A stretch of 53,082 nucleotides of DNA, from assembly GCA_029933275.1 (NCBI GenBank), contig JAOZOM010000001.1, positions 1 to 53,082 of the forward strand, written 5' to 3'. Each line of letters starts with the position of its first letter. Positions within the stretch are counted from its first letter, which is position 1. Origin of the DNA: Anaerolineales bacterium (lineage in GTDB: Bacteria > Chloroflexota > Anaerolineae > Anaerolineales > Villigracilaceae). Shown piece by piece: positions 5,086 to 45,294 of the stretch. The position numbers were made by a program, and so were the translations under genes. The notes beneath the pieces were generated by a model that did not search any database, was not told the origin of the DNA, and saw only the letters and a list, made by a program, of their open reading frames with translations.

Positions 5086-5088
5086 GTT

Positions 5089-8705: not shown

Positions 8706-8720
8706 GCACTGGAAATTCTC

Positions 8721-13294: not shown

Positions 13295-13319
13295 TACCCA
13301 TGGTTATAGGAAGATACCG

Positions 13320-15014: not shown

Positions 15015-16162
15015 AACTCAAAACAAGATCATTTTTCGCATTAATCGTAATCCTGTTTTCTAGCATCCTATCAGCTTGCACCACAGCAGAGAAAGAAATT
15101 TCTGAAATCAGAATCGGGGTCATCGCACCAATTACTGGGGCAATTTCTACCGTAGGAAAATCCACGGTTAATGCTGCTGAACTAGCCGTGAGAGAAATAA
15201 ATGAAAATGGTGGTTTAACTATCAATGATGCAAAATATAAAATCACGCTCATTATTGTTGATAATCAAGATAATGAACAAGAGACTGCCGCTGCGGTTCA
15301 AAAATTGATTAACCAAGATAATGTTGTCGCTATTATCGGACCGCAAGCTAGCCGAAACGCGATTCCAGCCGCTAATATCGCTGAAAATGCGGGCATTCCA
15401 ATGATCAGCCCGTGGTCAACAAATCCTGCCACAACAGCAGGGAAAAGCTATGTCTTTCGCGTCGCCTTTATCGATTCGTTTCAAGGACAAGTAATGGCAC
15501 GGTTTACCTTTGAAGAGTTTGGTGGGGAAAAAATTGCCGTGCTTTACGATATAGCCAGTGATTACAATAAAGGTATCGCTGAGATCTATAAAAAGATTGT
15601 TGAAGATGCGGGTGGAAAAATCGTTGCCTTCGAATCTTATACAACAGGAGAAGAAGATTTTAGCGAACAGCTTCAACGCATAAAAGACAGTGGAGCAACC
15701 CTTCTCTTTTTACCCAATTATTACAACGAAGTACCTCAGCAAGTCCAACAAGCAAAAGAATTAGGAATCACCGCTACCTTTATTGGGAGCGATGCGTGGA
15801 GCGGCATTCCGGAAGAAGATCTCGATTTACTTGAGGGAAGTTTCTTTAGTACACATTATTCCCCTGATATTGCCAATGAAGCTGCTCAAATTTTTATCCA
15901 ATCCTATCAACAAAGCTACAATGTAGTTCCCGACGATGTTGCCGCATTGACCTACGATGCGTTCGGTCTGCTTTTTCAAGCTATCCAAACACAAGATGAG
16001 GCAAACCCAGAGGCTATTCGAGCTGGTTTAGCCGCAACAGAGGCTTATTCTGGCATCACGGGAACAATGGAATATCGAGGTACAGGTGACCCAATTAAGA
16101 GCGCAGTTATTTTGAAAATAGAAAATGGACAGTTTGTATTTTACAAACAAGCCAGCCCCTAA
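15011..16162 (+). CDS. Type-1 periplasmic-binding-fold (LivJ/LivK-like) solute-binding lipoprotein
   Basis: ATGA overlap with the S6 stop. The signal peptide carries the lipobox LSAC (Cys23). IRIGVIAPITGA...GKS..NAAELAVREINENGG...IIGPQASRNA is typical of the PBP1 branched-chain-amino-acid/amide binding family. No permease or ATPase genes are adjacent. Confidence 0.85.
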   Translation: MKLKTRSFFALIVILFSSILSACTTAEKEISEIRIGVIAPITGAISTVGKSTVNAAELAVREINENGGLTINDAKYKITLIIVDNQDNEQETAAAVQKLINQDNVVAIIGPQASRNAIPAANIAENAGIPMISPWSTNPATTAGKSYVFRVAFIDSFQGQVMARFTFEEFGGEKIAVLYDIASDYNKGIAEIYKKIVEDAGGKIVAFESYTTGEEDFSEQLQRIKDSGATLLFLPNYYNEVPQQVQQAKELGITATFIGSDAWSGIPEEDLDLLEGSFFSTHYSPDIANEAAQIFIQSYQQSYNVVPDDVAALTYDAFGLLFQAIQTQDEANPEAIRAGLAATEAYSGITGTMEYRGTGDPIKSAVILKIENGQFVFYKQASP

Positions 16163-16175
16163 TGGAGGTTTCCTC

Positions 16176-18383: not shown

Positions 18384-18397
18384 CTAAGGAAAGAACC

Positions 18398-20065
18398 ATG
18401 CTAAAAATCTTAAAAAAGATATTATTTCCACCGGTTTTTGAAGACCAAGAGCGCACCAAGATTGCACAATTTATAAATGCAATTGTCTATGTAAGCATTC
18501 TTCTATTAGGATTGATCATCCTATCTGTAGGCAATCTTCAATCAACAACAAGCCTAGTGCTTGGCTCGCTTATTTTCGTAATGATTGGCATTCAAATCTT
18601 TATGCGTACCGGGCGAGTTCGCTTATCTGCCATATTATTAATCGGACTAACATGGTTCGCAATGAGCTATATGGCTTGGGAAGCAGACGGCATCCGCAAC
18701 GCCTCGCTTATTGCTTATCTCATTTTAATCTTCTTGACGAGCTTATTAGGCAGTCTCCGCCTATTTATCTCATTTACCGCCCTGACCATTATCTCACTTT
18801 GGGTCCTAGTTTACGCCGAACTAAAGGGGATAATAGCCCCCACCCTTGATACCCCTACTCACCTAGCACGCGATTTCTCCGCCATTTTTATCCTCATTGC
18901 AGTCCTTGTCTACCTCACACTTACCAATCTTAACAAAGCCTTATCCGCTTCAAAAGAAAACGAAAATAAGCTCTTACTACACAATCAAGAACTCACGCAA
19001 TTTCAAGATGGATTAGAAAAACTCGTGAACGAACGCACATCTGAACTGGAAGAAAATTCGAAAAAATTGCAAACACGAGCAATGCAACTTCAAGCAATAT
19101 CAGAAGTATCACAAACTATAGCGTTAGTACAAAATCAAGATCTTCTTTTACCTGAAATCACAAATTTAATTAGCGAACGCTTTGATTTTTACCATACCGG
19201 CATTTTTTTAATCAGCAAAGATGAAAAGTTCGCCACGCTCCACGCAAGCAATAGCCCTGGCGGCAAGGAAATGTTAGCGCATGGACATCAATTAGAAATA
19301 GGCAAAAAAGGCATTGTTGGGCGTGTCGCTCAAGATGGAAAAACCCGCATCGCTCTTGACGTTGGCGAGGATGCCACTTATTTCGATAACCCCGATCTCC
19401 CCGAAACCCGCTCAGAGATGGCACTTCCGCTAAAGGTGAAAAATAAAATCATCGGAGTACTAGATGTGCAAAGTAAACGAAAAAATGTCTTCTCTCAAGA
19501 AGATATCGAAATTTTTGAAGCCCTTGCAAATCAGGTTGCTATCGCTATAGAAAACACACGTCTGGCAGAAGAAACACAAAAAGCACTCGAAGAAGCTCGT
19601 TCGATTTCTCGTCAATATATCCACCAAGCATGGACTCAACTAGCAGCAACACAGCAACAGAAAGGCTACCGCTACACAGAGAAAAAGCTTCATCCCCTTT
19701 CAAAGGATAGTGAAAACTTCATAGGATCCAAAAGTGACATCATCTCAATCCCCGTGCAATTACGCGAAGAAACAATCGGGGTTCTCGAAGTCACCAGAGC
19801 CGATTCATCACAAACGCTAGATGAAGACACATTAAATCTAATTCAATCTGTAGTCAATCGTTTTGCCCTAGCCCTAGAAAACGCCCGTCTTCTCGAAGAA
19901 ACCTCCCGCCGTGCAGGACGCGAACGTCTCGTTTCGGACATCACCACAAAGATTCGTAGCACGAACAATCCTCAAGAGATGATACAAACAGCTTTGGACG
20001 AACTCAAGCAAGCTTTGGGTGCAAGTAAAATTGAATTGGCAACCACAATGCCAGAGGTAGATTAA
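18398..20065 (+). CDS. Sensor S8: polytopic membrane domain (PPxFE motif type) - S-helix - GAF - truncated-GAF tail; no transmitter
   Basis: AAGGAAAG RBS upstream. The N-terminus ILFPPVFEDQERTKIAQFINAIVYV parallels S6. S-helix VNERTSELE and GAF FDFYHTGIFLISKDEKF...YFDNPDLPETRSEMALPL...IGVLDVQS are present. The tail reads ENARLLEETSRRAGRERLVSDITTKIRS... Confidence 0.85.
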   Translation: MLKILKKILFPPVFEDQERTKIAQFINAIVYVSILLLGLIILSVGNLQSTTSLVLGSLIFVMIGIQIFMRTGRVRLSAILLIGLTWFAMSYMAWEADGIRNASLIAYLILIFLTSLLGSLRLFISFTALTIISLWVLVYAELKGIIAPTLDTPTHLARDFSAIFILIAVLVYLTLTNLNKALSASKENENKLLLHNQELTQFQDGLEKLVNERTSELEENSKKLQTRAMQLQAISEVSQTIALVQNQDLLLPEITNLISERFDFYHTGIFLISKDEKFATLHASNSPGGKEMLAHGHQLEIGKKGIVGRVAQDGKTRIALDVGEDATYFDNPDLPETRSEMALPLKVKNKIIGVLDVQSKRKNVFSQEDIEIFEALANQVAIAIENTRLAEETQKALEEARSISRQYIHQAWTQLAATQQQKGYRYTEKKLHPLSKDSENFIGSKSDIISIPVQLREETIGVLEVTRADSSQTLDEDTLNLIQSVVNRFALALENARLLEETSRRAGRERLVSDITTKIRSTNNPQEMIQTALDELKQALGASKIELATTMPEVD

Positions 20066-20137
20066 CTAAAAAATGTCAAAGAGAATTAACCGTAAATATA
20101 TGGCAACCCAGACCAAGGTCAGAGAGCGAGGCGAATT

Positions 20138-20926
20138 ATGGCTTATGTAATCGCAATTTCAAATGAAAAAGGCGGTGTCGCAAAAACAACGACCGCTTTA
20201 TCCCTCGGTGCAACCTTAGCCGAAAAAGGATACCAAGTCTTATTAATTGATTTGGACGCACAAGCAAATCTAACGCTGGCTCTAGGGTTTGAACCCGGCG
20301 GGGCAACTTTGACCTCGAGTGATATTTTGCTCGAGAATGTCCCGCTCGAAAATGTTTGGCAAAAAAGCGAGATCGAGCGTTTGGAAATTGTTCCCTCAAG
20401 CAAAAAAATGGAACGCGCTGAACAACTTTTACCCATTCACCTTAACTATGCTACTCGCCTTGCCGATGCTATTTTCGCCTCGCACCCCATGAAATACGAT
20501 TTCGTGGTTATTGATTGCCCTCCGGCTCTTGGTGCCGTTACATTGAATGCCTTAAACGCGGCAAATCTTCTCATTATTCCCACACAGGCAGAGTATTTTT
20601 CAGCCTATGCGCTACGAAATATGATGACACTTGTCCGAAAAGTACGCAGTAGCAACAACCCCCCATTAGCCTACCGCATTTTGATTACGATGCTAGATCG
20701 CCGCAATCGCTCTCACCGTACCATCCAAACCCAACTAGAAAGCACTTTCGGTGATGGGCTTTTCAAAAGCGTTGTAGAAATTGATACTAAGTTACGAGAA
20801 AGCCCCATACTTGGCTTACCTATCACCGCATATAAATCGAATACGCGTGGTGCTGAACAATATCGCGTTTTGGCTCAGGAGTTAATTGAATATGTCAAAG
20901 AAACAGATCAACAACCGTCTCAATAA
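20138..20926 (+). CDS. Orphan ParA/MinD/Soj-family P-loop ATPase
   Basis: Deviant Walker A SNEKGGVAKTTT with signature Lys, LIDLDAQANLT, and Walker B-like FVVIDCPP. 262 aa. No parB-like gene is nearby. Confidence 0.85.
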   Translation: MAYVIAISNEKGGVAKTTTALSLGATLAEKGYQVLLIDLDAQANLTLALGFEPGGATLTSSDILLENVPLENVWQKSEIERLEIVPSSKKMERAEQLLPIHLNYATRLADAIFASHPMKYDFVVIDCPPALGAVTLNALNAANLLIIPTQAEYFSAYALRNMMTLVRKVRSSNNPPLAYRILITMLDRRNRSHRTIQTQLESTFGDGLFKSVVEIDTKLRESPILGLPITAYKSNTRGAEQYRVLAQELIEYVKETDQQPSQ

Positions 20927-23900
20927 ACTCTTTGACGATATCAAAGAGGAAGAGAAGGCGACCAAGCGACCACAGCGCAAACCCAAACTCGGTGGCACAC
21001 GAAAATTACCGCAATTAGACCTAACGCTATCTTCTGAACAGCATCGAAAAACTGAAGTTGAGACTCTCGATATTCAGGTGGATGTAACCGATTCATACGC
21101 GACGATGAGCCTGCCTCTGCGTGTGGACGCAGAATCTTGGGCAACACTCCAAATTCTGGACGAAACCGCTGGTAGACAGTGGAGTACAGAAGAGCAGATG
21201 CTCGTGCGCCAAGTAACAGAACAATTGGAGCTTGCTCTTGAAAACGCGCACCTATTTCAAGAAACACAGGAGCAAAGTGAAGAACAGGCTCTTATCAATG
21301 AAATCGTCACAACAATTGCAGGCTCAGTTGATACAGAAGAAAATCTACAGTTCATAGCCCAGCATATTCAAATAATTGCCGGTTCATATGGCGCAAGCGC
21401 GACCATGCCGAACTACCAAAGTATGACCGCCACCATCACCAGCTACCGTTTTACGGACAAGAAGGTAAATATCTCTCGTGATAGCCTCCTGCTCAAATCG
21501 CTTGGAATTACCACCGTAATTCAAGAAAGCGGCGGGGCTGTTGTTGTAAAAGACATCGCTAATAACCCGATGGCTGCCGCAATCAAAGATAGCTTTCTTG
21601 CCCGTAAAATTCAAAGTGCGGTTATTTTCCCCTTGATGGCTGGAGATAATTTGCTGGGGCTAATGAGTGCTGATTTTAAAGAGAAAGAGCCTCTTATCTC
21701 AGATAAGAAAATCAAACTGATTAGCACAATCCTGTTGCAGGCAAGTACTTCTATTGAAAGAGCAAACCTTTATCAAGAATCCCAACAGCGCACAGAAGAA
21801 TTAGCTTTGATCAACAAAATTGTTACCGAAGTTTCCAGTTCTTTGGATATGCAAAGGAATTTACAATTAATTGCAAAGGAAATTTTTGCCATAAGCTCTG
21901 CCCTTCAAGTTAGCGTTACCCTCCTCGATGAGGAGAAAGAAAATCTCGTATTGGTTGCAGACTGCCCTGAATCTTTGGAAGACCGAGGCTTGAAAATCCC
22001 CCTTGCAAGTAACCCTGCCGGTAGAGAAGTGATGGAAACACAGAAACCATTGCTTATTGAAAATATCCAAACCAATCCCGCTACTGTCGGGATTAGAGAT
22101 GTTATGAAGGCACGCGGTGCCGATAGTTTAATCATCTTCCCCATGTTTGCCGGAAATAAAACGATAGGTACATTTGGCGTAGATTTTGAAGCTTCTACAA
22201 TAACCTTACCTCAGGATAAAATCGACTTAATTCAAACCATTCTTCTTCAAGCCAGCACGTCGATTGAAACAGCTCGTTTCTTCAAAGAGACTCAATTAAG
22301 CGAGGCTCGCGCTCGCGTCATCGTGCAGAATGCGCCGGAATCCATCGTGATGATTGATATGGAAACAGGTTTGTTTACAGAGCCAAATGATAACGCATTG
22401 CGCTTATATGGTCTCAGCAAAGAAGAATTGCTAAAAGCCGGTCCCGCTGATCTCAGCCCTCCCACGCAACCAAATGGCCGTCCATCGGCAGAAATGGCTG
22501 CCGAAAAAATGCAAGAAGCTCTGGAAGGTGATGCGCCCGTCTTCGAATGGACTCACCTTCACGCAAAAGGCAATGAAATTTTCTGTGAGGTCCGCTTGGT
22601 ACGCCTCCCCGATGCCTCTCGAACTCTCATTCGCGCGAGTATCGTTGATATTGCTGAGCGTAAATATAACGAACTTTTGCAAATAGCAGTATCCAATATT
22701 TCTAACGCCGCGTTGAGTGCACTCGATCTACAAGAGTTGATTCGCGAAATCCATCAAATTATTGAGACTTTGATGCCCGCAGATAATTTTTATCTTGCGC
22801 TATACGATGAAGTACGCGACTTGCTCACCTTCCCTTACTATGTTGATGAATTTGATACGGCATGGGAACCACAAAAACCAGGTAGAGGTTTAACCGGCTA
22901 CGTTCTACAAACAGGGAAACCGCTCCTCGCAACCCAAAATGTGATTAACACTCTTGAAAGAAGCGGCGAAGTTGAGTTGATGGGCCCAAAGGGAAACGAT
23001 TGGATTGGCGTTCCCTTAAAGAGTGGTGAAAAATCTATCGGCGTGATGGTTGTACAAACTTATGATGAAAATATTAGTCTTACAGAACAACATCGCGATA
23101 CTCTCGCTTTTGTAGGCAGACAGGTCGCCTCCGCACTGGAGAGCAAGCAATCGGAATTAGAACTTCGCGCACTTTTCTCTGCAATGGATGATGTGATTTT
23201 TATCGTAGATAAAGATACCCGCTACCTCCGCATTGCCCCAACTAACCCCGCTGGTCTCTACCGCCCTCCCGATGAATTACTGGGAAAACGGATGGACGAG
23301 ATTCTCCCCAAAGAAATCAGTGGATACTTCCACGATGCTATTAATCGGGCTCTAGAAGGAAAAGAAACAGTTAATATCGAATATTCACTTGAAATTGACG
23401 GAAAAAATGTCTGGTTTTATGCCAGTCTTTCAAAACTAGCGGAAAACCAAGTTTATTGGATAGCCAGAAACATTACTGAACGGAAACAAGCCGAACGCCA
23501 AGTAGAGAGGCTTAGCAATGCTGTTGAGCAGTCCCTAGATGGGATGGCAATCGCGAGTATGGATGGTAAGATCGAGTTCGTTAATCCAGCCTGGGCTAAA
23601 ATGCACGGCTACGATAATCCAACAGATCTCATCGGAAAACCACTTGCTCTTTTCCATACAGAAAATCAACTTGAAAAGGAAGTGAACACCTTCAACGAGA
23701 TAGTAAGAACTGAGGGCTCCAATCAAGGAGAAGTGGGACACAAACGCAAAGATGGCTCAATTTTCCCCACATGGATGACCGTTGGTATTCTAAAATCGGT
23801 AGACGATACCCCTCTGGCACTTGTTGCCTCGGCACAAGATATTACAGACCGCAAAAAATCTGAACTGGCTCTACGCCGCCAAAATGAATATATGGCAGCA

Positions 23901-25895
23901 GCAGCCGAAGTAGGACGTTTAGTGACCTCAACGTTGGATACCGGTATTCTCTTTAGACGTGCGGTAAACCTGCTTCGTGAACATTTTGGGTATTACCATG
24001 CTGCCATTTTCACAACAGAAGAAGCGGGCTTTAATGTTGTTCTCCGCGAAGCGACTGGTGAAGCCGGAGAGGAAATGAAGAAGAATGAACATTTCCTTGA
24101 AATTGGTTCAAAATCAGTTGTGGGGACAGCTACGGAAACAGGTGAACCTTATATCGTCAATGATGTTTCCAAAAACCCCAACCACCACGTTAATCCATTA
24201 CTCCCTGAGACCAAAGCAGAAGCAGCCATCCCACTAAAAATTGGACGTAGGATTATCGGCGCTTTGGATTTGCAAGCAACCGAAGTAGATGCCTTCACAC
24301 CGGAAGATGTTGCCGTTTTACAATTGCTCACCGATCAATTTGCGACCGCGATTGATAACGCTCGTTCTTATCAATTAGCCCAAGACGCCTTCTTGGAAAT
24401 GCGCGAACTCGAAAAACTCAAGAGCCAATTCTTGGCAAATATGAGCCATGAGCTACGCACCCCGCTCAACTCTATTATCGGTTTCTCACGCGTAATCCTA
24501 AAAGGAATTGACGGACCGGTAACTGATTTACAGCAACAAGACTTAACCGCTATCTACAACTCCGGTCAACACCTACTCGGTCTAATCAACGATATTCTCG
24601 ATCTTTCTAAGATTGAAGCGGGTAAGATGGAGCTAACATTCGATGAAGTGGATATAGAGAAACTGATTAAGAGTGTTATGTCTACCGTAATGGGTTTAGT
24701 CAAAGACAAACCGGTGCGTTTAGAGGAAGAAATCGAAGCCGAATTGCCACCGGTCAAAGCCGACCCTATGCGTGTCCGTCAAATTCTCATCAATCTCTTT
24801 TCCAATGCAGCCAAATTTACTGACGAAGGCACCATCAAAGTCACCGCCAAGACCGAAGAGAATCACCTTCGCATTAGCGTTAAAGATAGCGGTCCCGGCA
24901 TCTCAGAAGAAGACCAAGAGAAACTCTTTCAGGCATTCTCGCAAGTGGATGCTTCTGCAACTCGCGCAACCGGCGGCTCTGGTCTTGGGCTTTCCATCTC
25001 CAAAGAATTGGTTAATATGCACGGCGGCGAAATCGGACTCCATAGTGAAGTTGGCAAAGGGAGCGAATTTTACTTCACGCTCCTCTTCTACAATACGCCT
25101 GAAACCAATCCAGAAGAAGAGAACCAAGATGATACAGCCATCATTCTCGCCATTGACGATGACGAAAAAGTCATCAGTCTTTATCAACGCTACCTAAATA
25201 CGCAAGGCTACCAAGTCGTTGCGCTCACAGACCCAAAGAAAGCAGTGGAACGCGCCAAAGAACTCAAACCCTACGCCATTACGCTGGATATTATGATGCC
25301 CGGCTATAACGGCTGGCAGGTTTTAGAAGACCTTAAATCAGATCCCGAAACGCAACATTATCCAACCATCATTTGTAGCATTGTCGAAGACACAAAGAAG
25401 GGTTATTCCCTTGGGGCTACGGATTATCTCCTCAAACCGATTTTGGATGATGACATAATCGGCGCACTAAATCGGATTAACAATAATGGAACTATTTATG
25501 ATATTCTCCTCATTGATGATGATCCGGACGATTTGCGACTTCTCGAAAAATTACTTAACGCGAGCCAAACCTACAAAGCGATTCTCGCGGATAGTGGACC
25601 TGCTGGCTGGGATACGATCATCAGCCACCCCCCCCAAGCAGTTGTCCTTGATCTCTTCATGCCAGAAATGGACGGATTTGAAATCATGGAGGCGATGCAA
25701 TCCTCGCCCGACCTACGCGATATCCCCGTCATCGTCATTAGCGGCGGAGATTTAACCGCCACCCAACAAGAAAAACTTGATTCGCTCAATCTCCACCTCC
25801 TCCAAAAAGGAACGCTTAACTCAGAAGACCTCTTAGCAACGCTTGAGCGCAGTTTAAATCATCTTAAAAAATCTAAACAAAAAGAGAAAGAATAA
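20892..25895 (+). CDS. Giant hybrid sensor histidine kinase: basic tail - truncated-GAF module - 2 tandem GAF - PAS - GAF - 2 PAS - GAF (sensor subtype) - HisKA - HATPase - 2 receivers
   Basis: ATG at 20892; the ORF-track start at 20886 is a TTG. It overlaps the parA-like gene by 35 nt. H-box FLANMSHELRTPLNSIIGF, N/G boxes NLFSNAAKFT, DSGPGI and GGSGLGLSISK. Receiver 1 is ILAIDDDE...ITLDIMMPGYNG...LLKP. Receiver 2 is ILLIDDDP...VVLDLFMPEMDG...VISGG. The GAF before HisKA (FGYYHAAIF...LPETKAEAAIPL...IGALDLQA) matches the S1-S8 subtype. Confidence 0.9.
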   Translation: MSKKQINNRLNKLFDDIKEEEKATKRPQRKPKLGGTRKLPQLDLTLSSEQHRKTEVETLDIQVDVTDSYATMSLPLRVDAESWATLQILDETAGRQWSTEEQMLVRQVTEQLELALENAHLFQETQEQSEEQALINEIVTTIAGSVDTEENLQFIAQHIQIIAGSYGASATMPNYQSMTATITSYRFTDKKVNISRDSLLLKSLGITTVIQESGGAVVVKDIANNPMAAAIKDSFLARKIQSAVIFPLMAGDNLLGLMSADFKEKEPLISDKKIKLISTILLQASTSIERANLYQESQQRTEELALINKIVTEVSSSLDMQRNLQLIAKEIFAISSALQVSVTLLDEEKENLVLVADCPESLEDRGLKIPLASNPAGREVMETQKPLLIENIQTNPATVGIRDVMKARGADSLIIFPMFAGNKTIGTFGVDFEASTITLPQDKIDLIQTILLQASTSIETARFFKETQLSEARARVIVQNAPESIVMIDMETGLFTEPNDNALRLYGLSKEELLKAGPADLSPPTQPNGRPSAEMAAEKMQEALEGDAPVFEWTHLHAKGNEIFCEVRLVRLPDASRTLIRASIVDIAERKYNELLQIAVSNISNAALSALDLQELIREIHQIIETLMPADNFYLALYDEVRDLLTFPYYVDEFDTAWEPQKPGRGLTGYVLQTGKPLLATQNVINTLERSGEVELMGPKGNDWIGVPLKSGEKSIGVMVVQTYDENISLTEQHRDTLAFVGRQVASALESKQSELELRALFSAMDDVIFIVDKDTRYLRIAPTNPAGLYRPPDELLGKRMDEILPKEISGYFHDAINRALEGKETVNIEYSLEIDGKNVWFYASLSKLAENQVYWIARNITERKQAERQVERLSNAVEQSLDGMAIASMDGKIEFVNPAWAKMHGYDNPTDLIGKPLALFHTENQLEKEVNTFNEIVRTEGSNQGEVGHKRKDGSIFPTWMTVGILKSVDDTPLALVASAQDITDRKKSELALRRQNEYMAAAAEVGRLVTSTLDTGILFRRAVNLLREHFGYYHAAIFTTEEAGFNVVLREATGEAGEEMKKNEHFLEIGSKSVVGTATETGEPYIVNDVSKNPNHHVNPLLPETKAEAAIPLKIGRRIIGALDLQATEVDAFTPEDVAVLQLLTDQFATAIDNARSYQLAQDAFLEMRELEKLKSQFLANMSHELRTPLNSIIGFSRVILKGIDGPVTDLQQQDLTAIYNSGQHLLGLINDILDLSKIEAGKMELTFDEVDIEKLIKSVMSTVMGLVKDKPVRLEEEIEAELPPVKADPMRVRQILINLFSNAAKFTDEGTIKVTAKTEENHLRISVKDSGPGISEEDQEKLFQAFSQVDASATRATGGSGLGLSISKELVNMHGGEIGLHSEVGKGSEFYFTLLFYNTPETNPEEENQDDTAIILAIDDDEKVISLYQRYLNTQGYQVVALTDPKKAVERAKELKPYAITLDIMMPGYNGWQVLEDLKSDPETQHYPTIICSIVEDTKKGYSLGATDYLLKPILDDDIIGALNRINNNGTIYDILLIDDDPDDLRLLEKLLNASQTYKAILADSGPAGWDTIISHPPQAVVLDLFMPEMDGFEIMEAMQSSPDLRDIPVIVISGGDLTATQQEKLDSLNLHLLQKGTLNSEDLLATLERSLNHLKKSKQKEKE

Positions 25896-25899
25896 AATA

Positions 25900-27579
25900 A
25901 TGTCATTCATACTCCGTTGTATCGACTGCGGTCATAAAGCACCCTATTTTCCTACCTCTATCAGTTGCCCCAAATGTGGGAGTCAATGGCGCGAGGCGGA
26001 ATACGATTTAGATACACTCTCAAAAACCTTACCTCTACAATTACCAAATCGTCCCTTTGACCTTTGGCGATACCATGAACTGCTCCCCGTCCGCAACCCA
26101 GACCCCGCCTGTTCTCTCGGCGAAGGCGGAACTCCCCTCATCAAAGCCGCCAATTTAGGATTAATGCTCGGTTGCCCAAATATCTATATCAAAGATGAGC
26201 GGCAAGGACCAACAGCATCCTTCAAAGACCGTCAAGCTGCTGTTTCGATGGCAGCTCTAAAAGAAGCGGGGATTACCGAGATGGTCGTCGCCTCTACTGG
26301 CAATGTCGCAATCGCTTATTCCGCGTATGCTGCTCGCGCGGGGATTAAACTCTGGGCATTCGTCACCAGTCTTGTTCCAGCAGTCAAAATGCGAGAAGTT
26401 GCGCTCTATGGTAGTCAATTGATTAAAGTCTCAGGCTCTTATGACTCCGTTAAACGCGCCGCTTCTGAGTTTGCCAAGCAAAGAAACCTTTACCAAAATA
26501 TGGGAGCGCGTTCGATTCCCTCTGTAGAATCGATGAAAACGATCAGCTTTGAAATTGCCGAACAGCTAACCGGTTATCTCGGCAATGATGCCTCCGCAGA
26601 AGATGGCATACCGCGTTGGCAGACACCTGATTGGTATATCCAATCGGTTAGCGGCGGGATGGGTCCTCTGGGGGTTGATAAAGGCTTCTCAGAATTAAAA
26701 AAAATGGGCTTCGTCAATAAAAAACCCGCGATTGTAGGTGTTCAATCTGCCGGTTGCGCCCCGATAGTCAATAGCTGGAAAAAAGGTTTAGAGACCGCCG
26801 AAGTCGTTGCTGTTCCCCGCACACATATCGAAACCCTCGCCACTGGAAACCCAGGACGCACTTATCAATTTTTACGCAATATAGTGAATGATACAGGCGG
26901 CGCATTTGAAAGTGTTACAGACGAAGAAGCCTTCCGCGCCATGCACGTTCTCGCCAAAATGGAGGGCATCTCAGCCGAGCCTGCCGCCGCAGTCGCTTTT
27001 GCCGGTCTCTTTAAATTAGTTCGTGCGGGCGTGATTAAGCCGGATGATACCGTTGTGGTTAATTGCACAGGTCATACTGTCCCACCAGAGAAACTTGTTT
27101 TGGGCGATAATTGGGCGCGTAATGTCGTTTTACCCAAAGAAGAAGAGAGAAAAGAAGAGACCCCCCAAGAAGGCATTTTGGCAGCACTCAGCCACGTTGT
27201 CCCGGAGCGTTTTCCGCGCGTTGTCATCGTAGATGATACAACCGAAGCACGTCTGCTCATCCGCCGCATCCTACAATCGCAAGGCGACTTCACCATCTTT
27301 GAAGCCAATAACGGGAAAGAAGCTCTGCGCGTTGTCCGCCGCGAAAAGCCCGATCTGATCATCCTAGATTTAATGATGCCTGAACTCGATGGCTTTGGTG
27401 TTTTAGACGAGCTTAAAGCAGATTCTGAAACCGAAGGAATTCCCGTAATTGTTTCTACGGCAAAAGAATTAACAAAAGAAGAAAAAGAAAGGCTGAAGGG
27501 ACAAATCCAATCGCTTCTCCAAAAAGGTGATTTTATGAGCGATGAATTTTTTGATGAAGTTCATACAATCATAAATTAA
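25900..27579 (+). CDS. Threonine-synthase-like fold-type-II PLP enzyme with N-terminal Zn-ribbon and C-terminal receiver domain
   Basis: It starts 4 nt after the kinase stop. Four-Cys ribbon CIDCG...CPKCG (aa 7-26). PLP-lysine context TASFKDRQA (Lys codon 26224-26226), then STGNVAIAYSAYAARAGIK. C-terminal receiver (from nt ~27217): VVIVDDTTE...LIILDLMMPELDG...VSTAKE. Confidence 0.8.
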   Translation: MSFILRCIDCGHKAPYFPTSISCPKCGSQWREAEYDLDTLSKTLPLQLPNRPFDLWRYHELLPVRNPDPACSLGEGGTPLIKAANLGLMLGCPNIYIKDERQGPTASFKDRQAAVSMAALKEAGITEMVVASTGNVAIAYSAYAARAGIKLWAFVTSLVPAVKMREVALYGSQLIKVSGSYDSVKRAASEFAKQRNLYQNMGARSIPSVESMKTISFEIAEQLTGYLGNDASAEDGIPRWQTPDWYIQSVSGGMGPLGVDKGFSELKKMGFVNKKPAIVGVQSAGCAPIVNSWKKGLETAEVVAVPRTHIETLATGNPGRTYQFLRNIVNDTGGAFESVTDEEAFRAMHVLAKMEGISAEPAAAVAFAGLFKLVRAGVIKPDDTVVVNCTGHTVPPEKLVLGDNWARNVVLPKEEERKEETPQEGILAALSHVVPERFPRVVIVDDTTEARLLIRRILQSQGDFTIFEANNGKEALRVVRREKPDLIILDLMMPELDGFGVLDELKADSETEGIPVIVSTAKELTKEEKERLKGQIQSLLQKGDFMSDEFFDEVHTIIN

Positions 27580-27584
27580 CAAAA

Positions 27585-28535
27585 ATGAAAATCGGAAAGA
27601 AAAACAGAGGTATTAACGCAGCAATCCTCTCCGCTCTTTTCTTAGGGTTTACGCCCGTATTCGGAAAACAAGCCATACTTGCCGGTTTTTCCCCTTTTGC
27701 GGTAGTTGCCTTAAGAACAAGTATGGCAGCAGGGCTTTTACTCGCGATTCTTCTCCTATTCAAAAGACAGTATCTTTATATTTTCTCTGTGGGGCTTCTC
27801 GGTTGTATCTTAGCGGGCGCAATTAACGGGCTTGGCTCTCTTTTCTACTATATGTCCCTTAAACGGCTGGGAGCAAATGTCGGGCAACTTCTTTTCTCTC
27901 TTTATCCTGTTTTCGTTGTTTTTTGGTCATTCCTAGACCGTCAAAATCCCAGCAAACTCACCCTCCTACGAATCGCCTTAGCGGTAGCCAGCGTCATCCT
28001 GATTACCAATTTCGATAACTCCGAAATTGACATCATGGGTGTCGCTTTTATGCTAACTGCCTCTGCGCTATACGCGCTTCACCTCCCGATTAATCAACGC
28101 GTTCTTTACGAAGTTCCAGCACCAACCGTCACACTGTATACACTACTTTCGATGAGCGCGGTTGTTGTCTCCGCCTACTTCATCTTTGACCCACAATTTC
28201 CTAGCATGAATCTTAATTGGGGACCTGTAATCGGATTAACCCTCGTCACCTTTTTCTCCCGCCTGACACTTTTCTTAGGAGTCAAGCATATCGGAGGGAT
28301 TCAAACCGCGCTCCTTGGACTTGGGGAATTACTCATCACCATTATTGCCAGTTATTTCTTGCTCGGTGAAAAACTGACTTTTTTACAGTGGGTCGGCGTA
28401 TCCGGGCTGATGACTAGCCTCCTGCTAGTTCGCTTTGAAAAAGCATCGCCCCATAAAGGACCCGGCGGCTGGCTCAACTGGATTCGCGCCCCTCACCAAA
28501 TCCCCCCCGATATTCCCTGGGGACCACATACATAA
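27585..28535 (+). CDS. EamA/DMT-superfamily transporter (10-TM drug/metabolite exporter type)
   Basis: It starts 5 nt after the preceding stop. ~10 hydrophobic helices form two EamA-like halves, with G-rich helix ends (GAINGLGSLFYYMSL; GGIQTALLGLGELLIT). Confidence 0.8.
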   Translation: MKIGKKNRGINAAILSALFLGFTPVFGKQAILAGFSPFAVVALRTSMAAGLLLAILLLFKRQYLYIFSVGLLGCILAGAINGLGSLFYYMSLKRLGANVGQLLFSLYPVFVVFWSFLDRQNPSKLTLLRIALAVASVILITNFDNSEIDIMGVAFMLTASALYALHLPINQRVLYEVPAPTVTLYTLLSMSAVVVSAYFIFDPQFPSMNLNWGPVIGLTLVTFFSRLTLFLGVKHIGGIQTALLGLGELLITIIASYFLLGEKLTFLQWVGVSGLMTSLLLVRFEKASPHKGPGGWLNWIRAPHQIPPDIPWGPHT

Positions 28536-28565
28536 TTTGCAGCGGTCTAGGAGACCGGCACCAAT

Positions 28566-28605
28566 AAAAAGCTCTTCTTCCCTTTCATAGGAAAAAGAGC
28601 TTTTT
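28566..28605. terminator. Bidirectional hairpin terminator between convergent operons
   Basis: AAAAAGCTCTTCTTCC (28566-28581) pairs with GGAAAAAGAGCTTTTT (28590-28605) with one mismatch. It is flanked by an A-run and a T-run. It lies between the EamA stop (28535) and the minus-strand regulator stop (28643). Confidence 0.7.
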
Positions 28606-28642
28606 CTGTTCTTATCCTCAACCATCCGCCCCAAAGCCCAAT

Positions 28643-29380
28643 CTACGTCTTATACTCAAAAACATAGCCTGTGCCGCGTACACTCACCACGCTCCCTGCC
28701 AGCGAGGGGACTTGGCGAATCTTTTGGCGCAATCGGCTCACCAGCGGGCGGAGAATCTCCGGTGCCTCGTGCTGGGCAGTTTCATAGCCCTGCACCAGCA
28801 AAACCAGCTCGCGATGCGAAAAAACACGTCCCACATTTTCAACGAAGATGCGTAAGAGCCGCCCCTCTGCCGGAGTGAGATGAATCTCCTCCTCCGCGTA
28901 TTTGATTAAACGGCGAGAAAGATCAATTTCAGTGCCATCTTTTAATTTAACGGTAGCAACCCGCTCGTCCAAGGGCGTATCAGAGGCATATCCCTCGCGG
29001 GCGCGGAGTTTCTCCTCGCGGCGCGATAAACCAATCCGCACACTCGCCAAAATCTGCATAGGCGAAGCGGGTTTGAGCAAATAATCGTGAATCCGCAAAC
29101 GCAAGGCTTCCACCGCACTTTCCGTTGTCCCGAATGCGGTCAGCAAAATCACCTCTGTATCGGGAGAAATTTCGTTGATGATTTGCACCACTTCGAGCCC
29201 ACCAATGCCGGGCATTCTTAAATCGACAATCATTAAATCAACATAGTGGTTACGCGCATAATTTACCGCAACTTGTCCGTTTTCTGCTGTAGCAACGGTG
29301 TAACCTTCAAGACGCAGAATATCACCAAGAGATTGTAGTGCAATCGTTTCGTCATCAACAATTAAAATAGTGGGAGACAT
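28643..29380 (-). CDS. OmpR/PhoB-type response regulator (receiver + winged-helix DNA-binding domain)
   Basis: I prefer the start MSPTILIVDDE at 29380, which overlaps the upstream TAA (TAATG) by 1 nt. The ORF-track start at 29416 would overlap the upstream gene. Receiver LMIVDLRMPGIGG...LLKP. C-terminal LTPAEGRLLRIF...RPLVSRLRQKI...VRGTGYVF is Trans_reg_C-like. Confidence 0.9.
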   Translation of the reverse strand: MSPTILIVDDETIALQSLGDILRLEGYTVATAENGQVAVNYARNHYVDLMIVDLRMPGIGGLEVVQIINEISPDTEVILLTAFGTTESAVEALRLRIHDYLLKPASPMQILASVRIGLSRREEKLRAREGYASDTPLDERVATVKLKDGTEIDLSRRLIKYAEEEIHLTPAEGRLLRIFVENVGRVFSHRELVLLVQGYETAQHEAPEILRPLVSRLRQKIRQVPSLAGSVVSVRGTGYVFEYKT

Positions 29381-30963
29381 TATTTTCCTCCAATCGGCAA
29401 AGTAACTTGGAAACAAGCCCCTTTATGATCGTTTGTAATTAATTCCAACTCACCGCCCAGCGCGGCGATGATATTGTAACTCACAGTTAGCCCCAAGCCC
29501 GTGCCACCTTCTTTTGTGCTGATAAAAGGCTCAAAAATATTCGGCTGGTCTTCTGGGGCAATCCCAATCCCGTCATCCTGAAAGGTGATTTCAACACTCT
29601 TCTTCTTTTTACGCGCCCAAATATCCAGCATACCACCGGCGGGCATCGCATCGTAGGCATTTAAAGACAGGTTCAAAAAAACTTGCTGCACCTGTGCACT
29701 CACCGCCATCACGGAGGGCAAATCTTCGGGCAAAGAGGTATTAACTTGAATATCTCGCTTCTGAAATTGCGCCCGCATCAGGCTAAGAACATGGTTCAAA
29801 GTTTCTTCCAGATCCACTTCTTTAGGCGCAACCGTGCCGGGGCGATAAAAATCTAACATCCGTTGCACAGTGGTAGTCAGTCGCTCTAGCTCGGTTTGCG
29901 CCAAACCAAAATACTCATCCCGTTTGGGTTCAGGCAAATCCTCTCGCCCCGCCAAATGCAAACAATTCCGCACCGCTTGCAAAGGATTATTCACCTCATG
30001 CGCAATCGAAGCCGTCAGCCGTCCCGCCGCCGCCATTTTTTCCGCTTGCAACAATGCCTTTTGCGAATCTTTTACTTGCTGCACATACTCACGCAGCTCA
30101 GCATAAAGATTAGCGTTCTCAATCGCCACCGCTGCTTGCCGTGCCAAAATTAAGAGCGTATCCAAATCAATCTCCCGAAAAGACGATTGCCCCGCACCCC
30201 TGCCCGCGTAAAGCAACGCCTCAATTCCAGAGTGGTTAATCGGCACAAAAAGAGCCGAGCCAATCCCAATTTCGTTAAATTTCTTTTGGAAAAGGGGATG
30301 CTCCGACTCGCTCACCTTAATCGGGCTTAAGATTTCGCTCAAAGCAGATTCTTGTCCCTTAGCTTTCCCCGCTTCGCGCGTAGGATAGACTTGCCCTCGT
30401 TGAACGAGCAAAGTCAACGCCCCATCCTCTGTCGAACGCTGATAATACGCCGCGTTTTCACAACGAAGATGTTTGCAAACCGCATCCACAATTAGCTCAG
30501 GCAAACGCTCTGGGCGTGTTTCTGCTAAAAAGGCTTCGGTCACATCAAAAAGCGGACGTAGGGCTTCGGTATGTGCAGCATCGCGTTTTTGTTGACTATC
30601 CGCAAGAGCTAGGCGCGCCGCTTCAACCAATTCATCGCCCTCTTCAAAAGGTTTTAGGATCAATCCGTCCACGCCGCGGCGCAGGGCTTTAATAGCGGTC
30701 TCCACCGTCCCAAAGCCGGTCATCACTAAAGTTGCGATATCGGGCTGATGTTGCTTCGCAAAAGCAACCACACTGAAACCATCCACAACGGGCATACGGA
30801 TATCTACGAGAAGCAAATCCACTCGTTCGCCGCGCAAATAGTTCATCGCCTGTTGGGGATCGGTAAATGCTGAAACGCGGAAGCCCGCGCGGGTCAGGAG
30901 GCGTTCGCAGAGTCTTACTATCCCCTCTTCATCGTCAACAATCAAAACAACCGGAGTATTCAT
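29380..30963 (-). CDS. Receiver - GAF-like - HisKA - HATPase hybrid histidine kinase (cytoplasmic)
   Basis: N-terminal receiver VVLIVDDEE...LLLVDIRMPVVDG...ILKP. H-box SIAHEVNNPLQAV. HATPase motifs LNLSLNAYDAM, DDGIGI and GGTGLGLTVS. ATGA overlap with the upstream kinase gene. Confidence 0.9.
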   Translation of the reverse strand: MNTPVVLIVDDEEGIVRLCERLLTRAGFRVSAFTDPQQAMNYLRGERVDLLLVDIRMPVVDGFSVVAFAKQHQPDIATLVMTGFGTVETAIKALRRGVDGLILKPFEEGDELVEAARLALADSQQKRDAAHTEALRPLFDVTEAFLAETRPERLPELIVDAVCKHLRCENAAYYQRSTEDGALTLLVQRGQVYPTREAGKAKGQESALSEILSPIKVSESEHPLFQKKFNEIGIGSALFVPINHSGIEALLYAGRGAGQSSFREIDLDTLLILARQAAVAIENANLYAELREYVQQVKDSQKALLQAEKMAAAGRLTASIAHEVNNPLQAVRNCLHLAGREDLPEPKRDEYFGLAQTELERLTTTVQRMLDFYRPGTVAPKEVDLEETLNHVLSLMRAQFQKRDIQVNTSLPEDLPSVMAVSAQVQQVFLNLSLNAYDAMPAGGMLDIWARKKKKSVEITFQDDGIGIAPEDQPNIFEPFISTKEGGTGLGLTVSYNIIAALGGELELITNDHKGACFQVTLPIGGK

Positions 30964-33581
30964 CCTTCATCCTCGATGGGAAGCCAAACCGTGAAGCAGG
31001 CTCCTTCTTCGGGCGAGCTTTGCACATCAATAAATCCGCCGTGATCGGTCACAATCCCGTAGCTGACCGCTAGACCAAGACCGGTGCCGCCCTCATCCGC
31101 TTTGGTGGTAAAAAATGGTTCAAAAATACGTGCCAAATCATGCGCAGTGATGCCTTCTCCGCTATCCTGAACTACCATCGTAACCCATTTGGCTTTATTT
31201 TTCTGACGTTTTTGGGTACGAAGTGATAGCTCACCGCCCTGCGGCATTGCGTGGAGGGCATTATGCAAAAGGTTCAACACAACCTGCTTAATTTGGTCTC
31301 GATCTATCAGCACCCAAGGGAGATTTTTGCCGAGCTTCATTTCAAAGTGGATATTATTGCTCTCAAGAAGATGATTGGTGAGGGCAGCGACATCTTCGAT
31401 AATTTCGTTCAGATCAGCGCGGACGCGAACACTCTCGCTCTGCCGCGCAAAATCGAGCAAACGGCGTACTACGCTACGAGCGCGCTTTGCCTCGCGCAAG
31501 ACCATCTCTAAATCGCCGCGTTGCGTGGATTCTGGAGGGAGATCTTCTAATACAAGTTCGGAAAATCCTGCAACAGTGGTGAGGGGATTATTTAGCTCAT
31601 GCGCCACGCCCGCCGCCATCTCGCCAACTGCGGCGAGTTTTGCCGCCTGAATAAGTTGATTTTCTGCGATGCGCTGCGCTTCCATCCGTTCTTGGAGTTC
31701 TTCTTGGGTGGTTTGCAAAATCTGAATCGTATCTTGGAGCATTTGATAGCGATCTACGCTGGAAACCGCGCTGGTGAGAAATCCCGCCAACGATTCGAGG
31801 GCTAAAAGGTCGTTATGCGTGAAGGCATTTTTCTCGCTGGCTTCCACATCAATAATCCCCAAAATGCGATCTCCATCCTGCAATGCAACACAAATTTCCG
31901 CACCCACATCCCAACCGGGGATATGCGTATAAAGGGGATTTTTAGTGGCATCATCCACCATAATGCTTTCACCACTCGCAAAAACGCGTCCGCTGATACC
32001 CTCTTCGTTGGGATATTCAAATTTTTCAAAAGCGGCTTTAACCAAGGGGGATGCCGCTCCGCTGATTCCTTCGATATTCAATTTCTGATTTCGGTCTACC
32101 AGAAGAACAACTGCCAACTCATAAGAGAAATGACGCACGAGCAAATCGGCGGTGATTTGCGCCACCTCGTCTACGTTGGTCAGCCCAATCACCTGCTGAA
32201 TCACCTCGTGAATTAATCCAAGATTACGGGCGCGCGCTTCCGCCTCTTCACGCAACCTACCATATTCAACCAACCCTGCCAAATGGCTGGCAATAACCAC
32301 AAGAAGATTCTCGTCATATCCGCTGAATGCGGCGGCTTCTTCACTTTCCAACACCAAAACACCGATTACCTCGCCGCGATATTTCAACGGAACCAGCAAA
32401 GCCGATTGCGCCTGCACGTCACCCAAGAGATAATTCTGAATATCCGCCTTTTCAATACGAATATTTTTCCCCTCGCGAATAAATTTCTCGAAAGGATGGT
32501 TTTCAACAAATTCAGTACGCGGCATCGTGCGCCGCTCAAGATTGCGATATTCTCTCAATGTCCGCCCATCGGAGGAGAGCAAGAAAAGGGAGAGTAATTC
32601 CGTCCCAAAAGTGCGTTCCAGCAAAGCAAAAACGCGCCGCACGATTTGCCCCAAATTTTGTGCGGAGGAAACAATCAACGCAAAATCGTTAAGCATCGCT
32701 TGTCGCCGCAAATGGTCCGCCATCTCCGCAAAAGTGACGAAAATCTCAACCGAAGCCGCGGCGTAAATACTGAACTGCTGTAATTTGAGCCATTCATCAT
32801 CACTAAATGCCTCGTTTCGCCACAATGCAACTACGCCAATTAGCCGTTGCCCGACCATCAGCGGCAGCGCGCCCCAAGTCTCGGCATCAATCGGCGAAAC
32901 CTCTTCTCTCATCTTTTCCCAATCAGGATCGCCTCTTTTCAAGAGCAAGGGATTGGCGATTTTCTTAATCTGTGCGAATAGGGCATCCCCATCTAAGATA
33001 AATTCTCGTTCCAAAAGCTCCGGAGAATTCCAATGCGCTTCGACCCTAAGCGATTTTTCACCGTAGATTGCCAGCCATGCCCCTTCGCAAGGGATATATT
33101 GCACAATCCGCGAAAGAATACGCGCCAAAGAGCGCGGCAAATCATAGGGGACAGAAGTCTGCCCGCCGAAGATGAATGCGTCCGCAGGCTGTAAGGCAAA
33201 ATTGGATGTACAGAAATTCCCAGCGTTGGTGATGACGCGCCAAATCTGTTTGTCTTTTTTATCTAGCTCCTTTGCCCCGACCAAAATCATTTTTTCTGTA
33301 TCTTTGATTGGAAAAGCGTATAAGCGATCTGCCCCCAAATTCAAATCTTTCGTAATTTTTCGCGAGCGTGATTTCCCCACAGCCAAAGCACCGCAAAGCC
33401 AGCTATCTACCGTGCCGAGATTAATATAATTATTAGCGAGAGCTTGTCGTTTTTTATTGAGCTTATAACTTGCTTCAAAATGCCACCCTGCGCTTTTCCG
33501 CTCCGCGCAAAGAGCCCAATCCGCATTTGTGATTTGGCAGCTTTCCTTTAATAATGATTCTGTCTTCTTTGAATTTGCCAT
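30960..33581 (-). CDS. Cytoplasmic multi-GAF sensor histidine kinase
   Basis: No TM helices were seen. There are at least three GAF-like units (for example ...SALLVPLKYRGEVIGVLVLES...). H-box GVAHELNNPLTTV. HATPase motifs LNLLHNALHAM, DSGEGI and GGTGLGLAVSYG. Confidence 0.9.
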   Translation of the reverse strand: MANSKKTESLLKESCQITNADWALCAERKSAGWHFEASYKLNKKRQALANNYINLGTVDSWLCGALAVGKSRSRKITKDLNLGADRLYAFPIKDTEKMILVGAKELDKKDKQIWRVITNAGNFCTSNFALQPADAFIFGGQTSVPYDLPRSLARILSRIVQYIPCEGAWLAIYGEKSLRVEAHWNSPELLEREFILDGDALFAQIKKIANPLLLKRGDPDWEKMREEVSPIDAETWGALPLMVGQRLIGVVALWRNEAFSDDEWLKLQQFSIYAAASVEIFVTFAEMADHLRRQAMLNDFALIVSSAQNLGQIVRRVFALLERTFGTELLSLFLLSSDGRTLREYRNLERRTMPRTEFVENHPFEKFIREGKNIRIEKADIQNYLLGDVQAQSALLVPLKYRGEVIGVLVLESEEAAAFSGYDENLLVVIASHLAGLVEYGRLREEAEARARNLGLIHEVIQQVIGLTNVDEVAQITADLLVRHFSYELAVVLLVDRNQKLNIEGISGAASPLVKAAFEKFEYPNEEGISGRVFASGESIMVDDATKNPLYTHIPGWDVGAEICVALQDGDRILGIIDVEASEKNAFTHNDLLALESLAGFLTSAVSSVDRYQMLQDTIQILQTTQEELQERMEAQRIAENQLIQAAKLAAVGEMAAGVAHELNNPLTTVAGFSELVLEDLPPESTQRGDLEMVLREAKRARSVVRRLLDFARQSESVRVRADLNEIIEDVAALTNHLLESNNIHFEMKLGKNLPWVLIDRDQIKQVVLNLLHNALHAMPQGGELSLRTQKRQKNKAKWVTMVVQDSGEGITAHDLARIFEPFFTTKADEGGTGLGLAVSYGIVTDHGGFIDVQSSPEEGACFTVWLPIEDEG

Positions 33582-44100: not shown

Positions 44101-44107
44101 CCCTCAC

Positions 44108-44611: not shown

Positions 44612-44661
44612 CGGTAAAATCCTATAGAAATCGGTAAGCTTATCCGGTTTCGGGGACTAAC

Positions 44662-45222: not shown

Positions 45223-45294
45223 TTTACTCCTTTTCATCTTTAAAGAAATTAAAAAATTGCCAAAATTCCAATATGCGCCTCCTTCGCTTAAATA

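Follow-up and report, generated by a model that had tools for sequence, protein, structure and literature searches.

Two-component systems act mostly on transcription, second messengers or chemotaxis, and the response regulators that carry an enzyme of their own include the CheB methylesterase, the diguanylate cyclases PleD and WspR, the HD-GYP protein RpfG and regulators of the PP2C type. Fused regulatory modules are also known among fold-type II pyridoxal phosphate (PLP) enzymes, namely the N-terminal extension of plant threonine synthase, which is activated by S-adenosylmethionine (SAM; PDBID 2C2B), and the C-terminal ACT-like domains of IlvA. Here we describe a gene that encodes a threonine synthase (ThrC)-like PLP enzyme fused to a receiver domain, and which sits between the genes for a hybrid histidine kinase and an EamA/DMT permease. 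It lies in a window of 53,082 nt (the whole stretch of DNA analyzed; contig JAOZOM010000001.1 of assembly GCA_029933275.1, forward strand) from an Anaerolineales bacterium, a member of the Anaerolineae, filamentous bacteria that live in sludge, sediments and hot springs and are abundant but poorly understood. We read the product as a response regulator with an enzyme as its partner domain, that is, a kinase-controlled, non-canonical enzyme of the ThrC family served by a dedicated transporter; in our judgment belief and doubt are evenly balanced for this interpretation. In the literature searched, which was covered in part, nothing turned up on the fusion of a receiver to a PLP enzyme, threonine-synthase-like or other, or on an Anaerolineae threonine synthase. 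Seen from one side, the protein is a response regulator whose enzymatic output is undescribed in that literature; seen from the other, it is an enzyme of the ThrC family whose regulatory module is undescribed there.

The fusion gene and the parts of its product are arranged in the window as follows.

25900–27579, plus strand: fusion gene for a zinc ribbon, ThrC-like PLP domain and receiver, 559 aa (uninterrupted open reading frame (ORF); Pfam PALP and Response_reg; homologues; AlphaFold2)
25918–25977, plus strand: N-terminal four-cysteine zinc ribbon, C7, C10, C23 and C26 (translation; conserved cysteines)
26113–27072, plus strand: fold-type II PLP domain, residues 72–391 (Pfam PALP, 211 bits, E 3e-62)
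26224–26226, plus strand: Schiff-base Lys109 within SFKDR (translation; alignment)
26500–26541, plus strand: loop MGARSIPSVESMKT, in place of the threonine-synthase N-S-x-N-P-x-R-x-E-G-Q-K-T (translation; alignment to five solved threonine synthases)
26650–26667, plus strand: glycine loop SGGMGP, in place of the threonine-synthase G-N-(A/L)-G-N (translation; alignments)
27076–27174, plus strand: flexible interdomain linker, residues 393–425 (pLDDT below 50)
27217–27576, plus strand: C-terminal receiver (Pfam Response_reg, residues 441–542, E 5e-20, 72.2 bits against a cutoff of 30.2)
27232 onward, plus strand: receiver acidic pair D445/D446 (alignment)
27367–27369, plus strand: receiver phospho-acceptor D490, within LIILDLMMPELDG at 27355–27393
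27457–27459, plus strand: receiver T520 (alignment)
27523–27525, plus strand: receiver K542 (alignment)

Each of the three parts that a preliminary description of this DNA had proposed is present at the positions given there. The codons of the four zinc-ribbon cysteines fall within the predicted stretch, the SFKDR lysine is K109, and the receiver is complete, with its acidic pair, aspartate, Thr/Ser and lysine all intact, a score above the gathering threshold and a kinase gene alongside. The window protein further retains the PLP-binding elements S132-T-G-N135, a glycine loop and T390-G-H392. In the AlphaFold2 model (mean pLDDT 83) the zinc ribbon is predicted at about 85 and the receiver, at about 90, adopts the (beta-alpha)5 fold, with disorder confined to the linker and the last residues of the protein. 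Matches to the receiver in the PDB are of the CheY, Spo0F, DivK and TM0468 types, and a query with the receiver by itself retrieves multi-receiver hybrid kinases as its top matches. The linker is joined to the receiver by a conserved P-x-EG-[LI]-L-[AS]-A-L helix, a motif common to clades that are only 51–56% identical to the window protein.

This architecture is the rule among relatives. All of the 120 best homologues (71–95% identity, about 550–560 aa), which come from independent assemblies in NCBI, ENA, JGI and Logan, carry PALP and Response_reg in one protein. Scanned at one genome per species, relatives are present in at least 573 genomes, and the known sequences of the family form more than 300 clusters at 90% identity; almost all are from the Anaerolineae (Chloroflexota). 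The best 80 of these genomes are all Anaerolineales or Anaerolineae metagenome-assembled genomes (MAGs), Ca. Villigracilis included. Among the complete or nearly complete MAGs with the fusion are JAXLVS010000001.1 (4.89 Mb), OW818655.1 (4.26 Mb), CAWIOV010000001.1 (2.17 Mb) and contig ctg321994 of ERZ25072999 (3.68 Mb). The preliminary description had raised the possibility that the fusion was an artefact of a missed stop codon or of assembly. A missed stop, a frameshift and a chimeric assembly are excluded by the continuous frame, the conserved linker motif and the recurrence of the fusion in hundreds of independent full-length homologues. It had also asked whether the catalytic residues might be degenerate, and they are not: across 305 full-length fusions K109 is kept in 305, D490 in 304, D446 in 300, T/S520 in 304 and K542 in 300, S132, G134 and N135 are invariant or nearly so, and each zinc-ribbon cysteine is kept in 298–305. 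T390-G391-H392 does not vary in alignments that include up to 67 members of the family. Judging by these residues, the PLP and receiver halves are both kept functional.

A search seeded with the nearest stand-alone relative brought to light a second large clade, 51–56% identical to the window protein, from Aggregatilineales, Phototrophicales and MAGs named ‘Anaerolineae bacterium’. Its members have the same parts, namely zinc ribbon, PLP domain, linker motif (P-x-EG-L-L-[AS]-A-L) and receiver. Other variants are the Thermoflexus proteins of 536–540 aa, a small lineage whose receiver has decayed and two-receiver proteins of 690–727 aa. When the PLP domain alone is placed in a neighbour-joining tree (322 columns, 100 bootstraps), every fused protein groups with six stand-alone proteins in one clade (94% bootstrap), and canonical threonine synthases stay outside it (100%). 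Because all fused proteins fall in that clade, the fusion is, on this tree, of single origin and arose early in the Anaerolineae. The six stand-alone proteins nest beside the second clade (97%), which points to secondary loss of the receiver. One of these receiver-less proteins, P0292 (422 aa; L011, 5239–6507, GCA_943367755.1), is encoded on a contig that also codes for a phycobilisome linker protein, which suggests transfer to a cyanobacterium with loss of the receiver.

Databases currently label the family ‘pyridoxal-phosphate dependent enzyme’ or ‘threonine synthase’, and we compared the window protein with threonine synthases by profile, by loop and by gene association. The nearest solved sequences and folds of its PLP domain are class I threonine synthases (Foldseek TM-score 0.81–0.86 on the target). 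Nevertheless, it scores 154 on TIGR00260 against a cutoff of 167.1 and 257.7 on PRK08197 against 303, and it lies far below the cutoff of all other threonine-synthase models. On the cysteate synthase model TIGR03844 it reaches 111.3 bits against a cutoff of 324.9. All five solved threonine synthases compared, bacterial and plant, have NS(V/L)N(P/S)xR(L/I)EGQKT and GN(A/L)GN, two loops that reportedly hold the phosphate of O-phosphohomoserine in the Thermus structures. The window protein has MGARSIPSVESMKT and SGGMGP instead, and replacement of both loops is a family-wide trait: the family pattern at the first is G-x-[RK]-x4-x-E-[SA]-M-K-T, and S251, G255 and P256 of the second are essentially invariant in the 305 fusions. 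The divergent loop region taken alone (residues 181–267) has no matches in the PDB. The zinc ribbon is of no help in the distinction, as it is not clade-specific and occurs in canonical zinc-ribbon threonine synthases as well.

One such canonical enzyme, P0270, which has a zinc ribbon and the canonical loops, illustrates the expected profile, with a TIGR00260 score of 284.6 bits and a place in a thrC-lysC-asd-thrB operon. The 53-kb window has none of the genes hom, thrB, asd and lysC, and in the related loci with gene lists the threonine-pathway genes are absent near fusion genes and occur only around P0270. No second thrC was found with Thermus ThrC and P0270 as queries in the window or in 178 related loci (2.49 Mb), where the fusion genes and the locus of P0270 itself were the sole matches. 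In sum, the window protein lacks three of four testable attributes of a threonine synthase, namely a score above the cutoff, the loops and the association with thr genes, and it possesses the fourth, the fold with SFKDR. The earlier term threonine-synthase-like thus holds for the fold and fails for the curated cutoffs and the two signature loops. Likewise, the placement by HMM and phylogeny that the preliminary description had called for puts the domain on the ThrC branch, in a clade separate from canonical threonine synthases and below the cysteate-synthase cutoff. As the loops are absent and the scores fall short of both the threonine- and the cysteate-synthase cutoffs, ‘threonine synthase’ is, by the sequence comparisons made here, not a safe name; within the fold-type II PLP enzymes, the protein belongs to the ThrC branch as a non-canonical member. 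Since the threonine-synthase loops are replaced, the standard conversion of O-phosphohomoserine to threonine is probably not the reaction it catalyzes.

The same data can be turned toward a more conservative account, in which the protein is a housekeeping threonine synthase, its receiver tunes threonine synthesis to signals and the permease is a RhtA-like overflow exporter of threonine or homoserine. E. coli RhtA, a threonine/homoserine exporter, does belong to the EamA/DMT family. The closest matches by sequence and by structure are threonine synthases throughout, members of the family occur widely in the Anaerolineae and are highly conserved there, and in some lineages the gene stands beside argF/argD or methionine-cycle genes, that is, among genes of amino-acid metabolism. 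The second clade narrowly exceeds the TIGR00260 cutoff (about 170 against 167.1) and is named threonine synthase by PGAP (NCBI). Set against these are the scores of the window protein under every curated threonine-synthase cutoff, the replacement of both loops that are invariant in the solved enzymes, the separation of the fusion gene from hom, thrB and asd in the loci examined, unlike P0270, and the confinement of the gene to a kinase/permease operon over deep divergence. On balance we regard a housekeeping role as unlikely. The presence or absence of a standard thrC in the host genomes decides between a specialized module and a regulated housekeeping enzyme.

The operon itself and the genes around it are laid out as follows.

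1204–20065, plus strand: co-directional sensor array of dCache, HAMP and MASE11-GAF membrane proteins with a LivJ-like binding protein (Pfam)
20138–20926, plus strand: ParA/MinD-like ATPase, AAA_31 (Pfam), with a 41-nt overlap with the kinase start
20886–25895, plus strand: 1669-aa hybrid histidine kinase that comprises four GAF domains, PAS, a HisKA-HATPase core at about residues 1165–1405 and two receivers (Pfam; H-box read)
27585–28535, plus strand: EamA/DMT permease, 316 aa, with two EamA repeats and about 10 transmembrane (TM) segments (Pfam; hydropathy)
28643–33581, minus strand: convergent two-component genes for an OmpR-type regulator, a REC-GAF-kinase and a GAF-GAF-kinase (Pfam)

The tight spacing reported earlier is borne out by the coordinates. 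The kinase ORF ends at 25895 and the fusion ATG begins at 25900, leaving a 4-nt gap; the fusion stop ends at 27579 and the EamA ATG begins at 27585, leaving 5 nt. The permease was said to be a 10-TM EamA/DMT transporter, and it has two EamA stretches in Pfam (99 bits, E 3e-28) and about ten hydrophobic peaks. Its score on TIGR00950 is 64 bits against a cutoff of 230, a generic family match, and no equivalog model matches it. A scan of 19900–28800 for promoters and terminators gave counts no different from those in shuffled sequence.

To place this arrangement among relatives, we compared the window proteins with 80 Anaerolineales loci. The order ParA-like ATPase, hybrid kinase, enzyme, EamA is found in essentially every Anaerolineales locus uncut by a contig end. 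The kinase lies directly upstream in 71 of 72 loci (median gap 5 nt) and EamA directly downstream in 75 of the 76 with room for it (median gap 37 nt). The ParA-like ATPase keeps its position at 59–92% identity, comparable sensor arrays sit upstream, and the convergent two-component genes adjoin EamA in most loci, not all. The sole Anaerolineales locus with room (about 1.4 kb) and no detected EamA homologue is L041, downstream of 12440. One further locus, L044 (JADJSY010000060.1), binned as ‘Lewinellaceae’ (Bacteroidota), carries the full Anaerolineales ParA/kinase/enzyme/EamA/convergent two-component cluster at about 70% identity; this contig is probably mis-binned.

The pattern extends to the second clade. 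The three contexts inspected there read giant kinase/enzyme/EamA, receiver/enzyme/REC-kinase/EamA and enzyme/REC-kinase/EamA, and of 44 metagenomic loci with enough flank, 42 have an adjacent kinase and 33 an EamA gene no more than 3 kb away. Between the two clades, the EamA proteins share 40–43% identity along their full length and are thus orthologues that moved together with the enzyme. The preliminary description had also suggested a survey of such fusions and their neighbours, and the order kinase/enzyme/EamA is recurrent in the family. Because the linkage to kinase and EamA persists across deep divergence, there is good evidence, from gene order, that the three act in concert.

The coupling of enzyme and EamA that had been proposed for the window is thus borne out in the two largest clades; it is not universal, and other lineages have GNAT or mtnA neighbours. 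Downstream of the gene for the two-receiver form (about 700 aa; L005, 10001–13429, and L008, 10001–14050) come one or two genes for single receivers and one for a GNAT acetyltransferase, in place of EamA. In Thermoflexus (L096, 8949–11623; L098, 650–3324) the fusion gene starts 5 nt after mtnA (TIGR00512, 458 bits) and lies near a gene for a bifunctional homocysteine S-methyltransferase/MTHFR, and no kinase or EamA gene is listed in the stretches fetched around it. The decayed-receiver form is flanked by a divergent YedF/DsrE-like sulfurtransferase gene and by argF-argD. We also considered whether a basic residue before E210 was lost as EamA was gained and rejected the idea, as EamA is present in 15 of 19 loci with a basic residue and in 16 of 22 with a hydrophobic one.

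These minor lineages bring a second alternative into view, in which the enzyme is a MetM-like gamma-replacement enzyme of sulfur amino-acid metabolism that combines O-phosphohomoserine with a sulfur donor to give homocysteine or methionine, and is misannotated as a threonine synthase. MetM was reportedly studied by Hasebe et al. in 2024. As described in the GapMind 2026 preprint (10.1101/2024.10.14.618325), MetM is a ThrC homologue that acts as a homocysteine synthase dependent on MetO thiocarboxylate and is ‘often misannotated’ as threonine synthase; a second source (PMC12172450) likewise describes a ‘unique ThrC’ of Microcystis, a non-canonical ThrC homologue. The mtnA and homocysteine S-methyltransferase/MTHFR neighbours in Thermoflexus and the divergent YedF/DsrE-like gene in the other lineage would suit such an enzyme, but these sulfur and methionine hints are limited to two minor lineages. 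The window contains no ORF of 55–130 aa ending in Gly-Gly, as a MetO/ThiS-like carrier would, and an Rfam scan of the window and five related loci found no SAM riboswitch, other riboswitch or other element. Moreover, the nearest stand-alone relatives (P0292 and P0134) retrieve Anaerolineae fusions and ‘Ca. Binatia’ and not Streptomyces or Microcystis proteins, which argues that the fusion family is a different lineage from MetM and the ‘unique ThrC’. We judge a MetM-like function distinctly improbable.

The signaling side of the locus also admits more than one account. Nine plus-strand genes of the upstream array (1204–20065) encode membrane sensors that combine dCache, HAMP or MASE11 with one to four GAF domains and have no recognizable output domain; the array proteins of 555–564 aa have about 170 C-terminal residues without a Pfam match, and within the array, at 15011–16162, lies the LivJ-like Peripla_BP_6 protein. 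The array is likely the input side of the system, and its dCache/HAMP/GAF sensors and LivJ-like protein suggest small molecules such as amino acids as the input. The hybrid kinase is the presumed phosphodonor to the enzyme receiver. Elsewhere in this Chloroflexota window, at 43015–45237 on the minus strand, are genes for WxL and WxL-interacting (WxLIP_PGBD) cell-surface proteins, families best known from Firmicutes.

One way to read these parts is to reverse the direction of information within the fusion: the PLP domain would be a ligand sensor in which formation of an amino-acid external aldimine gates phosphorylation of the receiver, the latter serving the hybrid kinase as a phosphate sink or branch point. 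MocR/GabR regulators use PLP domains as effector-binding modules. The C-terminal receiver resembles the terminal receivers of hybrid kinases, and the ending ‘LLQKG’ is common to it and to the second receiver of the kinase. Additional receivers abound nearby: in one clade the enzyme itself bears two, and its gene adjoins one or two genes for single receivers. The whole window lacks a detectable HPt domain. What speaks for an enzyme instead is the retention of Lys109, STGN and the glycine loop in 305 proteins and of TGH in the smaller alignments, together with the lasting pairing with a permease, which argues for a small molecule being moved. In addition, receiver-less stand-alone descendants persist, so the PLP domain is evidently useful by itself. 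A sensor role accordingly strikes us as improbable.

For the reading that we prefer, a kinase-controlled ThrC-family enzyme with its own transporter, the following mechanism is proposed. The kinase encoded 4 nt upstream would pass phosphate to D490. The PLP domain is normally a dimer, and the phosphorylated receiver, on its flexible tether of ~30 residues, could then shift the oligomeric state of that domain or the closure of its active site, and catalysis would thereby be raised or lowered. The reaction itself may eliminate or replace a group at the beta or gamma position of a hydroxy- or phospho-amino acid, and the co-transcribed permease would carry the product out or the substrate in. In the version of the preliminary description, the product would be an amino-acid derivative and EamA would export it; import of a substrate would be the converse.

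Several observations weigh against this proposal. In addition to the narrow passage of the second clade over TIGR00260 and its PGAP label, many members have a Lys or Arg just before E210, near the position of the phosphate-binding Arg of threonine synthases, and R204 of the window protein lies in the E210 loop; an anionic or phosphorylated substrate may therefore still be accepted. Some lineages have no EamA beside the enzyme. The kinase has two receivers of its own (24390–25895) and no HPt domain to relay phosphate onward, leaving the phosphotransfer route uncertain, and control of the enzyme by phosphorylation is itself predicted from the architecture of the protein.

A bolder extension is that the trio forms a self-contained make-and-export signal module, in which environmental or cell-derived cues perceived by the array set the phosphorylation state of the enzyme, which makes a diffusible, amino-acid-derived molecule that the permease exports. 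We offer this as a doubtful possibility. If true, it would constitute previously unknown cell–cell or cross-feeding chemistry in filamentous Anaerolineae and the first PLP enzyme to serve as the direct output of a two-component pathway. More generally, a receiver on a PLP enzyme with a dedicated permease would show a sensor kinase switching primary-metabolite chemistry post-translationally. Settling the reaction would correct a systematic annotation of the family; predictions of threonine or methionine prototrophy for the Anaerolineae might change, and a new exported metabolite or signal could come to light.

Comparison with described systems places the fusion at a junction of several. With class I threonine synthases (1UIN and 1V7C of Thermus thermophilus, 6CGQ and 6NMX of B. 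subtilis, 2D1F of M. tuberculosis) it has in common the fold, SFKDR, STGN and TGH; it differs from them in the replaced NSxNPxRxEGQKT and GNxGN loops, in its C-terminal receiver and in its kinase/permease operon, which is not a thr operon. Plant threonine synthase and IlvA are precedents for fused allosteric modules on such enzymes, theirs being metabolite-binding, whereas the module of the fusion is a receiver dependent on phosphorylation. Cysteate synthase (TIGR03844; CapA2, PDBID 9K3C) is also ThrC-derived, has a similar fold (Foldseek rank 16) and joins a phospho-amino acid to an alternative nucleophile. It is without a receiver and has another genomic context, and the fusion scores below its cutoff.

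MetM and the Microcystis ‘unique ThrC’ resemble the fusion family in being ThrC homologues that fall outside the canonical clade and regularly receive the annotation threonine synthase, and they show that the ThrC branch has evolved other gamma-replacement and deaminase chemistries. Unlike the fusion, they are stand-alone proteins encoded beside a sulfur-carrier gene and have no receiver. With regard to transport, RhtA exports threonine and homoserine, and EamA/YdeD exports O-acetylserine and cysteine. The window permease belongs to the same 5+5 TM two-repeat family, its match being generic only.

Two further comparisons concern the link to signal transduction. The genes for the autoinducer synthases CqsA and LqsA adjoin their sensor kinase genes. 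These PLP-dependent enzymes, which operate with two-component sensors (PMC3376566), offer a precedent for reading a PLP enzyme genetically coupled to two-component sensors as the synthase of a diffusible signal. They differ from the fusion in being fold-type I, acyl-transferring enzymes without a receiver or a dedicated permease, and no homology is implied. Finally, the fusion resembles CheB, PleD, WspR and RpfG in that a receiver is covalently joined to an enzyme and encoded beside a kinase, with phosphorylation expected to switch catalysis. It is set apart from CheB, PleD and RpfG by the nature of its partner, a PLP-dependent enzyme of the amino-acid type, and by the position of its receiver, which is C-terminal rather than N-terminal.

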